A DNA stretch of 39,534 nucleotides, from the NCBI GenBank assembly GCA_045567975.1, contig JBJLBY010000007.1, positions 1 to 39,534 of the forward strand, given 5' to 3'. Source of the stretch: Candidatus Poseidoniales archaeon. Its GTDB lineage: Archaea > Thermoplasmatota > Poseidoniia > MGIII > CG-Epi1. Of the stretch, positions 18,531-31,942 are shown piece by piece. How positions within the stretch are numbered: position 1 is the first letter of the stretch; every line of letters starts with the position of its first letter. The translations under genes and the position numbers were made by a program. The notes under the pieces were generated by a model that was not told where the DNA came from, did not search any database, and worked only from the letters and a program-made list of their open reading frames with translations.

Positions 18531-19376
18531 TTAGTCTTCTACTTGTCTAGCTAGATAACCTCTAGAAAATAGCGTTTGGACTATAGCCCAAATCATAAAG
18601 AACACAAGAATGGAAAGTGCTTGACCATATATCGTATTATATTCTATAGAATTACTGAAACTATAGGGTAATAAGTTACCTAAGAATGAATGGAACAAGA
18701 AAGCAAGTGAAGTCAATATCATTGTCAAAGCTAAAGTTACAACTAATGTTACCAAAAACCATTGGAGAACCGTTTCAAACTCTCTGGAGTAGTGCATGAC
18801 TCTAGCTAAACGACTGTATCTTACATGCCCATAACTTAATTCTAAGTAAAGCATATATGAAAAAACAAAAGCAAGTATTGGATATATTTGATCATTAGTA
18901 TTTCCACCAAGTCCCAAAGGCATGACTATAATCAAAAATGCTGAGGCTACTTGATTACTAATTCTATCTAACCAAATACCTGTAATTCCCAACGATACTG
19001 GAAGGCCTATCCAGAACCAAACAAATAATTGCTGAGTTATATTATATGGAAAATAATCATAACTCATTAGAGAGGCTGTGAATACTAAAATAACTAGCAA
19101 AAAAGTTGAAAGTAAAAAATATTCATAAACTTTTCTATTGATATCTAAGAATACATTAAGCGTACCAACAAACAAACCCAAAAGCAAGCCTGCGACAATT
19201 GAATTGTTTAAAGTATCTATGACCTCTTTTTGATATATATTTTCAGTAATCGAATTTGTTGCTTGAAACAATAATGAATTGTCAATAGGGTTAATCAAAT
19301 AAGCAAAACCTAAACTGCAAATTAAGGAAAATGTAGCTAAAGTTTGCATCAAAGACAGACTGTTGTTAGTGTTCAT
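18531..19376 (-). CDS. polytopic membrane protein (7-8 TM), last gene of the MoxR/DUF58 cluster
   Basis: 281 aa, hydrophobic throughout. Its ATG overlaps the DUF58 stop (TAATG). No motif recognised. Confidence 0.55.
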   Translation of the reverse strand: MNTNNSLSLMQTLATFSLICSLGFAYLINPIDNSLLFQATNSITENIYQKEVIDTLNNSIVAGLLLGLFVGTLNVFLDINRKVYEYFLLSTFLLVILVFTASLMSYDYFPYNITQQLFVWFWIGLPVSLGITGIWLDRISNQVASAFLIIVMPLGLGGNTNDQIYPILAFVFSYMLYLELSYGHVRYSRLARVMHYSREFETVLQWFLVTLVVTLALTMILTSLAFLFHSFLGNLLPYSFSNSIEYNTIYGQALSILVFFMIWAIVQTLFSRGYLARQVED

Positions 19377-20623
19377 TACCTAATCACCTCTACCAAAGAT
19401 GTAGACAATACATCCTCTGGATTCCATCTCATAGCTCTAGCTCCAAGAGACCTAGCCTCAGTAATTTTGTTGTCAAGCGAGGACGAAGCTGTAAAGTAAA
19501 CTGTTGGAGAAATTATACGTGAATCTCTGTCGAAGTCCAAAGTGTCAGGAGCAATCAGAGTCAATTTGAAACCCCGTGCAGTAATCTCTCGCAAGGCACT
19601 AGCACTTGTCCTGTCATTCTCGAGAGTAGAGATAACCATTACAGGAGATCTAGGTGTGAAATTACGTAGATCACCTAGAATTGTGTGAAGTCCTAATGAA
19701 CCTGAAGCTTTAATTTCAGCAAGATTGGTCAATAAACTGTACAAGTGCCTCTCGCCAGAATCTGGAGGGATAACATTTACTGTTTCACCATAAGTAATCA
19801 GACCAACACGATTACGAGAGCCTAAAAAGAAATTAATCAAAGAAGCTGCAGCACGACAAGAATAGTTTAGTGGATTGTGAAGAACTGTGCCAGTCCCAGA
19901 TATCTCACGAGCATCTAGAACAATCATAATGTCAGATATATCTTCTCTTTCAAACTGGTTGACCATCAGTTTACGAGTCCTTCCGAAGACACGCCAATTT
20001 ATATTCTTAAAATCGTCGCCTGGAAAATACTCACGTATACCATAAAACTCTCCGCTTGTTCCAATTCTGCGAATTGGCATCGCCCCTTGATACATCTTTG
20101 GAAAGTCTGTAGACAAATCAACACCATCTATTTGTTCCATTTGAGGTAAAACGACCAAACTGGATTTTGATTCAATGTCAGATTCGTAGTAAAATAAGAA
20201 TGAAGGATTGTATATTCGTAATCTAGGATTGCCAAGTCGAAATTGTCCCCGAAGCCTGCAATTCAGTAAATATTTGGTGATAACCAATTCATCTTTTTGA
20301 AGCTTGACTATAGAATGATTTAGACCATTCTTTACCTCAACTTCTGAAGGTAGATTATCATATATTTCTAAGAAACCAATTGATCGACCTTTGTTCTGTA
20401 TAATCAAATCAACACTAACTTCACTATTTTCAAATATTTGATCGCTGTCAAAACCACGTGTTATTTTAACATCGATAGGTCTCGTATTAACTAGACTATG
20501 AACTGCTACGAAACCAAGTATAGTTGCTCCCAAAAGAAATAATTGTAAATTATTAATGAAAGGTGAAAATAATACAAGAATAGTTCCAAGGCCTACGTAG
20601 ACAACAGCCTTACGTGTCCACAT
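19376..20623 (-). CDS. DUF58 domain protein (vWA-like, MoxR partner) with N-terminal TM pair
   Basis: DUF58 signature FYGIREYFPGDDFKNINWRVFGRTRKLMVNQFERED, followed by the vWA-like strand IMIVLDAREISG. It sits immediately downstream of MoxR, as in known MoxR-DUF58 pairs. Confidence 0.8.
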   Translation of the reverse strand: MWTRKAVVYVGLGTILVLFSPFINNLQLFLLGATILGFVAVHSLVNTRPIDVKITRGFDSDQIFENSEVSVDLIIQNKGRSIGFLEIYDNLPSEVEVKNGLNHSIVKLQKDELVITKYLLNCRLRGQFRLGNPRLRIYNPSFLFYYESDIESKSSLVVLPQMEQIDGVDLSTDFPKMYQGAMPIRRIGTSGEFYGIREYFPGDDFKNINWRVFGRTRKLMVNQFEREDISDIMIVLDAREISGTGTVLHNPLNYSCRAAASLINFFLGSRNRVGLITYGETVNVIPPDSGERHLYSLLTNLAEIKASGSLGLHTILGDLRNFTPRSPVMVISTLENDRTSASALREITARGFKLTLIAPDTLDFDRDSRIISPTVYFTASSSLDNKITEARSLGARAMRWNPEDVLSTSLVEVIR

Positions 20624-20631
20624 ATTTTACT

Positions 20632-28914: not shown

Positions 28915-28935
28915 GTATGCTGAATACGTTAAACG

Positions 28936-31900
28936 TCAATTGTCAGCCTCAAAACCATCTGTCATTCCATCACCATCTGTGTCTTCATCCCAAGGATTGG
29001 TATTTGCTTCCTCTTCCCTCCAATTAGGGAAATTATGCCACACACCTTCCCAATCTTCCCAACCATCATCGTCATAATCTAAGAACCCATCAGCTCCATC
29101 AAGCGGATCTAAAGTCTGATTGGCTAACTTCGATTCGTGCTCATTCCAATATATTTCCCAGCCATCTGTGCAATTATCTGAATCTGTGTCTGCTTTAGTT
29201 GGATTTGTGCCTCTCAAGAATTCCTCATAATTTGTAAATTTCTCTGATGGTGACAACTCCCCGTCGCCATCAGCATCATATCCATCATTATCATTGTCAA
29301 ATACTGCATCTAGTGGAGAATTTGCATCTAAGCCATAATAGCCTTCCCAACCATCTGGCATGCCATCACCATCTGTATCATTATTCCGAGGATCTGTACC
29401 ATTCAAATATTCTTCATAATTTGTAAATTTTTCCCACTCTTCTATAGTTCCATTCTGGTTAAAATCCCAACCATCATCATCTAGGTCCTGTTCACCGTCA
29501 GCTGGATTAAATGGATCTAAATCAAACAGGAATTCCCAGCCATCTGGCATACCATCACCATCTGAATCGGGATTAGAAGGGTCTGTGACATAGCCATCAC
29601 TTCCAACAAAACATTCCTCCCAGTCTTCTATCATGTCTCCATCAGTATCTTTGAGTGTCGGATTAGAGCCAGTTATATTGTCTGAACTGAAGACATTATC
29701 ATCAAAGCCGTCAACTAAGCTATTATTGTATTCATGTAAATTAATCAAGGAATCGTTGTCTGAGTCTATCTGCGCATCACTTGAATTTAATGGTTGTAAA
29801 TTCCAATGTATCTCCCAACCATCTGGCATACCATCCCCATCAGTGTCACCATTTGTCGGATCTGTTCCATTCAAATATTCATGGAGATTGAAGAATTTCT
29901 CTAGATCTGTTATATTACCATTCCAATCAGCATCAAAACCATCGTTGTCAAGATCTTGAAGAGCATCTGTGGGATCTTTTGGATTAAGACCATATTTTGC
30001 TTCCCATCCATCTGGCATTCCATCGCCGTCTGTGTCATTACAAGTTGGATCTGTCAGATAATTGAACAACTCTTCACCATCTAACAAGCCGTCATCGTCA
30101 GTATCATTATCTCTAGGAGATGAAGAAGTTACATTATCTATTTCAAGGTAAGGACCTGCAGCAGTATTGTTGTATTCTAAACTGTTAATGACGCCATCTT
30201 GATCGGGATCTGCTCCTGCATCTAACGGATTAAGTGGATCTAAATCATGTATCCATTCCCAGCCATCCCACATACCGTCTAAATCTGTGTCAACATGACG
30301 TGGATCTGTATCTGCCTGAAACTCATAAACATTAATATGTTCTTCAATTTTCTCTATTGTTCCATTATAATTAGAATCAAAGCCATCATTGTCAAAATCA
30401 ATAGTTCCATCAAAATCATACAAGGGATTGAATCCGTAGTAAAGCTCCCAACCATCTGATGTACCATCATCATCAGTATCATTATCATTTGGTGAAGTAT
30501 TATTCAAAAATTCTTCAATATTAGTATAGGGTTCAGCCAATAAAACAAATCCATCTCGATTTGCATCATATCCATCATTATCACTATCCAAATCTGCATC
30601 AGAAGGGTCTGTAGGGGTAAGATTGTGGTATGCCTCCCAACCATCAAACATTGAATCTCCATCTGTATCATTGTTTGTCGGATCAGTGCCATTCAAATAT
30701 TCTTGTAGATTTGTAAAGTATTCATCAATTGAGATAGCCAAATTGCGATCATAGTCCCAGCCATCATTGTCCAGATCTTGGTTTGCATCCAAAGGAGATA
30801 TTGGATTGAGGCCATATTGATACTCCCATCCATCTGGCATTCCATCTCCGTCAGTATCATTGCTAGTTGGATCTGTGAATGAGAAATACAATTCATCATT
30901 ATCTGTTATGCCATCTCCATCGGTATCATTTGCATCAGGTCTAGTCGATAATATTCCATCTACATCAACCCAGCCAGTCTCGACTAGACTATTGTTGAAT
31001 TCATACAAATTTGGTAAAATGTCATCATCTTTATCTCCAAAATTATCTGAAGGTTGTAATGGATTTAAATCAAAATAAACTTCCCATCCATCTGACATAG
31101 TATCTTCATCTGTATCTGAAGAATATGGGTTAGTTTGATTGAAAAATTCCATATAATTGAGATACCTTTCTCCAAAAGACATCTCTGAATCATAATTTGC
31201 GTCCCACCCATCATTATCTGGATCTAACCATGCATCTGCATTATTTATCGGATTAAAACTACTGTTTGAAGTTAAACCTTTGTGTTTTTCCTTACAATTA
31301 TTATCACTTAGACAAATTGCCAACCAATCTGACCAAAAAATTTCCCATCCATCTGTCATCCAGTCTGCATCGGTATCATTTACCCAAGGACTAGTGCCTG
31401 CTTGATATTCTTCCAAATTAGTAAACATTTCATCGGAATTTATGATATTATTGCCATCTGCATCATATCCATCATTGTCATTATCCTCCTCAGCATCAAT
31501 ATCTGAAATTGGATTTAAATTATAGTAATCCTCCCAACCATCTGGCATACCATCACCATCACTGTCTGAATTGGTTGGATCTGTGCTATTTCCTAATATC
31601 AAACGCATCTCAAATTCCATTAAATTAGTAAAATATTCATCTTCTTCAATCAATCCATTACGATTCCTATCATGACCATCCATGTCAAAATCCAGAGCTG
31701 CATCAGCTGCATCAAAAGGATCTAAACCATAATCCATTTCCCACCAATCTGGCATTCCATCATTATCACTATCTTGTGTCGGTAAGTTCGAATCTAAAGT
31801 AGCCGATTCTGATTCAATATGTTGAGAAGATCTGAAAGAAACTAAGGGGGGGGGGGGGCGAAAATGGAAGGGCTGCAAGTAGCATAATCACTACTGCTAG

Positions 31901-31942
31901 GACTACGTAACGCCTTCCGCCACCTGCATTGGGGTCCGCCAT
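28936..31942 (-). CDS. secreted, highly acidic thrombospondin-type-3-like Ca-binding repeat protein (about 15 repeats); frame interrupted at a poly-C(13) tract just after the signal peptide
   Basis: The body is the 980-aa track ORF (28936..31878), built of repeated DxDxDG(M)PDGWE..YGLNP...DxDNDG.D...NG.I...E.FTNLxEYLNGTDP units. The real start is inferred to be ATG 31942, in another frame (MADPNAGGGRRYVVLAVVIMLLAALPFS-PPPP). The frames join if the C-run is 12 nt instead of 13 nt. Confidence 0.7.
31846..31858 (-). repeat. homopolymer: 13 G on plus strand (13 C on the coding strand)
   Basis: Read directly from the sequence: actaa-GGGGGGGGGGGGG-cgaaaatgg. It is the longest G/C homopolymer I noticed in the window and lies between the signal-peptide codons and the mature protein. 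Confidence 0.95.

Follow-up and report, generated by a model that had tools for sequence, protein, structure and literature searches.

A Marine Group III archaeal surface-protein cluster as a probable variant of the MoxR-DUF58-transglutaminase envelope module

Gene modules that pair a MoxR-family AAA+ ATPase with a DUF58 protein are very widespread, and in MoxR pairs with von Willebrand factor A (vWA) proteins, such as RavA-ViaA, the vWA partner serves as the adaptor of the ATPase. The present study examined a cluster of this kind in a 39,534-nt stretch of DNA (~37% G+C; hereafter the window, positions 1 to 39,534 of contig JBJLBY010000007.1 in assembly GCA_045567975.1) from a Candidatus Poseidoniales archaeon of the Marine Group III (MGIII) lineage CG-Epi1. 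The minus strand at 18531-31942 encodes MoxR and DUF58 proteins together with a DUF4350 protein, a polytopic membrane protein and two large predicted surface proteins, one of 1980 amino acids (aa; hereafter the giant) and one an acidic TSP3-repeat protein. MGIII archaea are uncultured and are thought to live on particles and proteins, and the cluster appears to encode one of their largest conserved surface structures.

In Pseudomonas aeruginosa, TgpA carries a periplasmic transglutaminase domain that is active in vitro, its gene is co-transcribed with PA2875-PA2874, and tgpA is essential (PMC3507681). The TgpA operon (PA2875-PA2874-PA2873; structures 6G49 and 6G4H) resembles the window's cluster in placing MoxR and DUF58, by tight linkage or co-transcription, beside a protein with an extracytoplasmic transglutaminase-like domain (in the window a predicted one), a transmembrane (TM) helix and a DUF4129 domain; among known structures, the head of the giant is matched best by the periplasmic domain of TgpA. 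In archaea, Makarova, Galperin and Koonin (2015; PMC5898192) describe arCOG01314 (DUF4350), MoxR and vWA proteins with accompanying immunoglobulin (Ig)-like membrane proteins as a predicted secretion or membrane-remodelling system. Its DUF4350 protein with signal peptide and C-terminal TM helix, its COG0714 MoxR and its vWA/DUF58 protein form one predicted operon as they do here, and its accompanying Ig-like proteins have a counterpart in the 12-13 repeats of the giant. The bifidobacterial PFNA cluster (pkb2-fn3-aaa_atp-duf58-tgm; PMC8430577, PMC6803598) likewise combines a large glycoprotein that is secreted and carries Ig-type (FN3) domains, MoxR, DUF58 and a membrane transglutaminase-like protein in co-directional genes.

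Set beside these systems, the locus is very probably the MGIII version of a known envelope module, that of the bacterial MoxR-DUF58-TgpA genes and the archaeal arCOG01314-MoxR-vWA neighbourhood. The explanation that we favour overall adds to this module variant an inside-out mechanism, in which MoxR and DUF58 in the cytoplasm would act on an enzyme displayed outside the cell, and we put its probability at roughly 0.55.

Gene order, promoter-like elements and recurrence

All six minus-strand genes listed by the first-pass annotation of this DNA were confirmed as open reading frames (ORFs). In transcription order, they encode the TSP3-repeat acidic surface or secreted protein (28936-31942; ~1000 aa when intact, with a TSP3_bac match), the giant (22942-28884; assigned from its ORF, Pfam and hydropathy), the DUF4350 membrane protein of 433 aa (21639-22940), the MoxR-family ATPase of 337 aa (20632-21645; AAA_3 match), the DUF58 (vWA-like) protein of 415 aa (19376-20623) and, as the final gene of the module, the polytopic membrane protein of 281 aa (18531-19376). 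Read directly from the sequence, the giant and DUF4350 genes are separated by a single nucleotide (TAA-A-ATG), DUF4350 and MoxR overlap by 7 nt (GTGGTAA), MoxR and DUF58 are 8 nt apart, and DUF58 and the 281-aa gene overlap by 1 nt (TAATG), all as previously quoted.

Translational coupling had been claimed for all six genes. This stood for the five from the giant to the 281-aa gene and fell for the TSP3 gene, because its stop lies 51 nt before the start of the giant and the giant has its own conserved TATA-like element. That element, TTTTATTTAT (28905-28914, minus strand), is located in the TSP3-giant spacer ~26 nt before the GTG of the giant, recurs there as CATACCTTTAT[GT]TAA in the majority of 14 orthologous loci printed, and is likely the promoter of the five-gene operon. 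A second TATA-like element, TTTATA (31966-31971, minus strand), lies in the spacer of 40 nt between the M24 peptidase gene and the TSP3 gene, ~26 nt upstream of the TSP3 ATG, and the TSP3 upstream motif CCCTTTATAG is identical in the related locus L010. Judged from these elements, the unit is a predicted five-gene operon (giant, DUF4350, MoxR, DUF58 and 281-aa protein) with an adjacent, separately promoted TSP3 gene.

GTDB species representatives were scanned with a DUF4350 alignment, which yielded 80 loci that were annotated by local phmmer with the window's proteins. The closest genomes are MGIII metagenome-assembled and single-cell genomes, and ~30 species-level MGIII loci (66-87% identity) retain the order TSP3, giant, DUF4350, MoxR, DUF58 and 281-aa protein, which answers the first-pass annotation's question of gene-order conservation in the affirmative. 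Order among these orthologues is uninformative by itself, since the flanking genes (M24 peptidase, transketolase, GATase and MFS) are likewise syntenic in all orthologous loci. Linkage independent of synteny comes from a paralogous operon that has the same order in another genomic context of the same MGIII genomes (~20 loci: L044-L057, L060-L064 and L068; L017 and L047 belong to CG-Epi1). Its 3007-aa protein fuses a signal peptide, a canonical Transglut_core (E=2.7e-21), 36 TSP3 repeats, Ig domains, a TM helix and a DUF4129-like tail; the genes for DUF4350, MoxR, DUF58 and a polytopic protein of 369 aa come next, across abutting TAAATG junctions (e.g. L047, 930-14799). The fusion of TSP3 repeats to a transglutaminase/Ig/DUF4129 protein ties these parts together.

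Beyond MGIII, two more distant archaeal loci carry the module, L041 with DUF4350 and MoxR genes after that of a transglutaminase/Ig/DUF4129 giant and L042 with DUF4350 and DUF58 genes after that of a DUF4129-tailed protein, two haloarchaeal plasmids (L095, N. luteum; L096, H. pelagicus) carry DUF4350-MoxR with a convergent DUF58 gene, and bacterial loci of C. metallidurans and Ralstonia have MoxR-DUF58-TgpA, in which TgpA consists of TgpA_N, Transglut_core, a last TM helix and DUF4129. Because the order recurs in the paralogous operon elsewhere in the genome, in distant archaea and in bacteria, comparative gene order indicates that the arrangement is not due to chance, and the earlier suggestion of a recurring MoxR/DUF58/transglutaminase/DUF4129/DUF4350 neighbourhood was borne out. 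The haloarchaeal clusters also adjoin flippase, glycosyltransferase, DUF1616, and sulfatase or aryl-sulfotransferase genes. A 697-aa secreted neighbour in N. luteum was considered as a DUF4129-tailed protein and set aside as a hint: the tail that follows its TM helix resembles DUF4129 on visual inspection, and DUF4129 is its top Pfam match, but this is sub-threshold (E=0.0018) and hhalign lends no support (1.9%). Bacterial transglutaminase-plus-Ig homologues of ~550 aa were likewise rejected as evidence of linkage, as there is no MoxR or DUF58 nearby on their contigs.

The Marine Group II loci (L058-L059, L063, L065-L067 and L069-L090; e.g. L083, 7219-13973) contain DUF4350 (540 aa), DUF58 and a 405-aa polytopic protein, and both MoxR and the DUF4129-tailed giant are absent from them. 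The module can thus be described as a core with add-ons, in which DUF4350, DUF58 and the polytopic protein are invariant and MoxR and the DUF4129-tailed surface enzyme form a co-occurring add-on. A 1058-aa neighbour in Marine Group II was rejected as a bearer of a DUF4129-like tail, having no TM helix and no similarity. Directly upstream of the Marine Group II loci, always on the same strand, lies a gene for a Cdc48-type double AAA+ ATPase, and flanking synteny is conserved there as well; that this ATPase replaces MoxR functionally is only a thought.

The giant protein and its partners

From its N-terminus, the giant comprises a signal peptide, a TSP3-like acidic region, a TgpA-like beta-sandwich with a transglutaminase-like core, ~13 Ig-like domains, a TM helix and a DUF4129 tail, and it is predicted to be a type-I membrane glycoprotein. 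The enzyme region (aa 203-499; 27388-28278, minus strand) was delimited by fold match, profile match and conserved motifs, and its predicted catalytic triad, placed by alignment, is Cys447 (27544-27546), His473 (27466-27468) and Asn496 (27397-27399). The transglutaminase core named in the first-pass annotation stayed below the Pfam cut-off when the single sequence was searched (Transglut_core E=0.11, 13.3 bits vs a cut-off of 23), and this formally touches one of the refuting conditions set in that annotation. The core is nevertheless supported indirectly, because homologues of the head region (E 1e-26 to 1e-15) carry PF01841, because the Cys and His motifs G-x-C-R-H-R-S and N-E-A-H-A-F-V-E are both invariant in 25 MGIII orthologues, because TgpA (6g49) ranked top in a profile search of the PDB with the head (E=0.06, aligned across the Cys and His motifs), and because an AlphaFold2 (AF2) model of the head (mean predicted local distance difference test, pLDDT, of 76.8) has TgpA 6g4h/6g49 as its top Foldseek match (E ~1e-6, probability 1.0). 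The next Foldseek match is 3isr, a transglutaminase-like cysteine protease of Cytophaga, and LapG (4fgq, probability 0.54) is among the weak ones. Of the 24 orthologues scored, 16 have Asn at the third triad position, as in the window's sequence, and eight have Asp; this alternation is compatible with a transglutaminase and with a LapG-type protease alike. The head is thus predicted, on model and motif evidence, to be a TgpA-like Cys-His-Asp/Asn thiol enzyme. It also occurs as a stand-alone secreted enzyme, since bacterial secreted proteins of ~510-570 aa (L001-L005) that are not beside MoxR or DUF58 combine the same head with one Ig-like domain at 28-31% identity.

An iterated self-profile search resolved the stalk into 12 tandem Ig-like repeats of ~95 aa (aa 657-1838; 23371-26916, minus strand) scoring E 1.6e-8 to 1e-33, with CarboxypepD_reg and Big_3_5 matches in Pfam. 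A likely 13th repeat at ~aa 545-650, judged by eye and seen in the bacterial homologues, agrees with the ~13 repeats initially counted, and no tandem repeats were found at the DNA level in the Ig region. By typical domain sizes, the stalk would hold the head an estimated ~50 nm from the cell. It is followed by the TM helix (aa 1842-1860) and a 120-aa cytoplasmic tail with DUF4129 (aa 1897-1965), together at 22945-23361 (minus strand) and recognized by hydropathy, basic flank and Pfam. The tail matches DUF4129 at E=1e-7, and its profile aligns with that of the C. metallidurans TgpA tail at an hhalign probability of 89.9% (E=1.7e-6).

Topology was evaluated from hydropathy, charge and the statistics of N-glycosylation sequons. 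The giant carries a signal peptide and, near its C-terminus, a single TM helix followed by the basic segment WKWYRERHLREIQR, and its ectodomain holds 43 N-x-S/T sequons vs 19.2 expected (~2.2-fold; 0/500 shuffles), whereas MoxR, the DUF58 domain and the tails show no enrichment. These features support a head outside and a DUF4129 tail inside the cell, as had been proposed. Identity across orthologues, relative to the window's sequence, is 0.92 in the transglutaminase core, 0.82 in the N-terminal TSP3-like region and 0.83 in the tail, vs 0.59 in the Ig stalk; the TM helix is also low at 0.53. Since the two ends (head 0.82-0.92, tail 0.83) are so much better conserved than the stalk, selection appears to act on the ends, both of which would be functional, and the stalk reads as a spacer.

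MoxR, DUF58, DUF4350, DUF4129 and TSP3 had each been named in the first-pass annotation, and all gave significant Pfam matches. MoxR (AAA_3 E=8.5e-65, 217 bits; AAA_lid_2 E=5.7e-25) has intact Walker A (GLAKT, aa 67) and Walker B (ADEINR, aa 126) motifs and is soluble, with no hydrophobic segments; its identity across orthologues is 0.86. The DUF58 protein (E=1.8e-19; isoelectric point, pI, 6.2), encoded 8 nt downstream, is the most conserved whole protein of the set (0.87). Two hydrophobic segments form a hairpin at aa 6-45 with K/R flanks on both sides, from which the large domain is inferred to be cytoplasmic and tethered by the TM hairpin. At the position of its metal ion-dependent adhesion site (MIDAS), alignment places D-A-R-E-I-S instead of DxSxS, here and in related archaeal proteins. 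The DUF4350 protein (E=1.2e-9, above cut-off, with ABC_transp_aux and IFT52_GIFT sub-matches) consists of an anchor segment (aa 9-27), an acidic ectodomain of 264 aa (aa 28-291), a TM region (aa 292-330) and a basic 103-aa cytoplasmic tail of pI 9.7.

The 281-aa protein has seven hydrophobic segments and 8-9 helices in its AF2 model (pLDDT 80.6), in keeping with the 7-8 TM helices first assigned to it. It has no match in Pfam or in NCBIfam, a scan in which five of the six cluster proteins fell into no specific family, and only 26 related clusters were found among 1.84 billion representatives. Since its counterparts at this position in the paralogous operon (369 aa; hhalign 90.5%) and in Marine Group II (405 aa; 95.9%) are homologous to it, the 281-aa protein is, by profile alignment, a genuine and fast-evolving component of the module that belongs to a small Poseidoniia-restricted family, whose members are always encoded last. 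Other assignments were rejected: the best PDB match of the AF2 model had a probability of 0.05 (E=1.9); a split-off TgpA_N (DUF3488) was not detectable, as hhalign of three family alignments with the N-termini of four TgpA proteins yielded 0.1-0.2%; and the small membrane proteins beside haloarchaeal DUF58 reached at most 0.8%.

The TSP3 protein matches TSP3_bac (E=3.2e-10) and, in part, CglD/MtsD-like NCBIfam models, has a pI of 4.05 and carries 29 sequons vs 11.5 expected (~2.5-fold; 0/500 shuffles). The first-pass annotation's outer limit of 31942 is the true start of this gene, where an N-terminal signal/anchor (MADPNAGGGRRYVVLAVVIMLLAALPFSP) is encoded, and it is out of frame with the ORF at 28936-31878 through a C13 homopolymer just past the signal-peptide region (31846-31858; G13 on the plus strand). 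With 12 or 15 nucleotides in the tract the gene would be back in frame, in the manner of phase-variable surface genes of bacteria. We rejected a phase-variation switch, given that the tract is the sole G/C run of at least 7 in the window, that close relatives have C3 at this position and an intact gene of 998 aa (L010, L097 and L098), and that the contig carries six other +1 G insertions, all in GG contexts, which break conserved genes; a metagenome scan found no tract-length variants. Within 13574-15461 and 16161-18481, G insertions break the transketolase, a single gene of 771 aa in relatives, into four ORFs; an MFS/ATG22 transporter, which has 618 aa in relatives, is broken into two. The six insertions indicate systematic homopolymer errors of the assembly rather than pseudogenes, and since such errors occur in the same contig, the C13 run is probably an assembly or sequencing artefact as well. 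The five operon genes equal their orthologues in length and look intact.

Elsewhere in the window, two minus-strand ORFs at 33879-39475 share the stop/start position 35597 and are possibly another surface-protein pair; one, of 1292 aa, has a PQQ/WD40-like beta-propeller and PKD domains, and the other, of 572 aa, has weak P-loop (NACHT/nSTAND-like) matches. An RNase P RNA of archaeal type (2591-2881, plus strand; 216 bits) marks the window as archaeal; a minus-strand ORF of 130 aa that overlaps it (2589-2981) is spurious.

Proposed mechanism and alternatives

In the mechanism that we propose, a MoxR ring at the inner face of the membrane would use DUF58 as its adaptor, following the logic described for MoxR-vWA pairs (PMC12067865). 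Through DUF58, MoxR would engage the DUF4129 tail of the giant, and perhaps the DUF4350 tail, to drive assembly, positioning or activation of the complex, and the polytopic protein and DUF4350 may provide a membrane scaffold. Outside, the thiol enzyme would modify surface glycoproteins by acyl transfer, cross-linking or processing the TSP3 partner, which is the prime candidate, or the cell-surface layer. Transglutaminase-type chemistry is favoured because TgpA, the nearest solved relative, is active as a transglutaminase in vitro (PMC3507681). Activity of this kind has been shown for P. aeruginosa TgpA only. Taken by itself, this mechanistic part is tentative, and we hold it at rather less than even odds.

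Several observations weigh against the combined explanation. The contact of the giant's tail with MoxR and DUF58 is inferred, and the TSP3 protein and the surface layer are only candidate substrates of the head. The score of the transglutaminase core in Pfam is sub-threshold on the giant's own sequence, and the Foldseek TM-scores of the head against TgpA are low (0.35-0.40). The promoter-like element of the TSP3 gene makes its co-regulation with the operon only putative. The degenerate MIDAS renders canonical metal-mediated vWA binding by DUF58 doubtful. In PMC5898192 the vWA protein is regarded as likely secreted, and the cytoplasmic assignment of DUF58 made here comes from hydropathy, charge and sequons. 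Lastly, MoxR is missing between DUF4350 and DUF58 in the related locus L042, where these two accompany a DUF4129-tailed protein.

The main rival would make DUF4350, DUF58, the polytopic protein and MoxR a secretion or surface-assembly machine for which the giant and the TSP3 protein are interchangeable cargo. The persistence of the DUF4350-DUF58-polytopic core in Marine Group II without giant or MoxR agrees with this idea, as do the differing large surface proteins of the paralogous systems, the flippase, glycosyltransferase and sulfatase genes that adjoin the haloarchaeal versions, and the resemblance of DUF4350 to GldG/ABC_transp_aux, which is found in Pfam and also stated in PMC5898192. Both large proteins, however, carry ordinary Sec-type signal peptides, the cluster showed neither a channel-like fold nor that of a known translocase, and the polytopic protein has no PDB match. 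To our knowledge, MoxR ATPases are remodelling or cofactor-insertion chaperones and not translocation motors, and this counts against a secretion role. The enzyme head is moreover the most conserved part of the giant (core 0.92), which is unexpected for passive cargo, and we consider this alternative unlikely.

Less probable still is a variant in which the DUF4129 tail is a handle by which MoxR, via the membrane-tethered DUF58, spends ATP on the insertion, extraction, recycling or switching of giant type-I surface proteins. This would amount to an archaeal inside-out control, driven by ATP, of an extracellular cysteine enzyme or adhesin. By analogy, its logic would be like that of LapD-LapG and of Cdc48-type dislocases, with unrelated parts, and the TSP3 protein would be an extracellular substrate or partner. 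If true, it would explain why MoxR and the DUF4129-tailed giant are jointly present in MGIII and jointly absent in Marine Group II, and the essential bacterial TgpA operon would gain a function.

A release switch of the LapG kind, in which the head would be a Ca-dependent cysteine protease that frees a giant adhesin (itself or the TSP3 protein) under inside-out cytoplasmic control, is an analogy that we regard as distinctly improbable. The papain-like Asn in the triad of the 16 orthologues noted above, the Ca-binding TSP3 repeats that adjoin the head and the weak fold match to 4fgq, within the Lap paradigm (PMC3032545), would suit such a switch. The closest structure is TgpA, a transglutaminase in vitro (PMC3507681), and not LapG; the enzyme is tethered at the tip of a stalk rather than free; and neither a c-di-GMP receptor or LapD-like protein nor a cleavage motif was identified in the cluster.

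That the giant is a passive particle or cell adhesin, adjacent to a housekeeping MoxR-DUF58 pair by synteny alone, is largely refuted: it draws on the syntenic flanking genes of all orthologous loci, whereas the paralogous operon keeps the order in a different context, the junctions overlap or abut, bacterial DUF4129-tailed transglutaminase proteins adjoin MoxR-DUF58, and the cytoplasmic tail is conserved. Least credible is a ternary MoxR-vWA-effector conflict (defence) system, for which one could cite the weak pass of MoxR against the bpMoxR model (29.6 bits, cut-off 27) and the beta-propeller/PKD protein ~13 kb upstream, and which is opposed by the far higher AAA_3 score (217 vs 29.6 bits), by the position of the nearest beta-propeller gene beyond an opposite-strand gene, by the lack of any effector or toxin domain, by a fixed core-genome position in ~30 species instead of a variable island, and by the absence of PADLOC matches in a scan confined to DUF4350, MoxR, DUF58, the 281-aa protein and the neighbouring 572-aa ORF.

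For the inside-out mechanism, the core and add-on pattern, the selected ends of the giant and the paralog fusion together point to contacts that can be tested, namely those of the tail with DUF58 and MoxR and those between the head and the TSP3 protein. Should the mechanism not be settled, the locus would chiefly be a well-documented, lineage-specific elaboration of a known neighbourhood.

Comparison with known systems

The topology that the first-pass annotation had singled out as unusual proved to have precedents. An enzyme outside and a DUF4129 domain inside the cell on one polypeptide, encoded beside MoxR and DUF58, is the canonical TgpA layout (C. metallidurans and Ralstonia annotation; P. 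aeruginosa, PMC3507681). The DUF4350-MoxR-vWA combination in archaea was described in 2015 (PMC5898192). The differences from each system lie elsewhere. Compared with TgpA, the giant lacks TgpA_N (no PF11992 match) and begins with a cleavable-looking signal peptide instead, it adds ~13 Ig-like domains and a TSP3-like region, and the third residue of its triad in the window is Asn in place of the Asp of the Cys-His-Asp triad. Its gene stands first in the operon, and DUF4350, the polytopic protein and the TSP3 partner are additions. Since TgpA_N is absent, the giant is not simply a TgpA, and domain comparison gives better support to the statement that it works like TgpA than to the statement that it is one.

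Set against the arCOG01314 system, the locus differs in its enzyme: the word "transglutaminase" had no occurrence in a search of the accessible text of PMC5898192, and no DUF4129 component is mentioned in it. The Ig-bearing partners named there (arCOG02884/COG4743; PF07760, DUF1616) have no Pfam match in the six cluster proteins; DUF1616 genes do adjoin haloarchaeal DUF4350 loci. The phyletic table of that paper marks the Thermoplasmata column with '-' and does not list Poseidoniia.

In PFNA, the Ig-type and transglutaminase domains are on separate proteins, whereas they share one polypeptide here, where DUF4350 and the polytopic protein are also present; neither the cluster nor the flanking genes scanned contain a Ser/Thr kinase corresponding to pkb2, and a planktonic archaeon offers no equivalent of the role in host interaction that has been suggested for PFNA. 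The likeness to LapD-LapG-LapA (PMC3032545) is a functional analogy only, made up of a transglutaminase-like Cys-His-Asp enzyme outside the cytoplasmic membrane, a giant adhesin with Ca-binding repeats and a link across the membrane to the cytoplasm; unlike the Lap system, the cluster has no LapD and no c-di-GMP domains, an AAA+/vWA pair appears instead, and the enzyme is fused to the giant.

What appears to be new in the MGIII module, on comparative sequence evidence, is the replacement of TgpA_N by a signal peptide, the stalk of ~13 Ig-like domains, and the TSP3 partner with its fusion in the paralog. To these may be added the Poseidoniia-restricted polytopic component and a three-tier distribution of the module across Poseidoniia.

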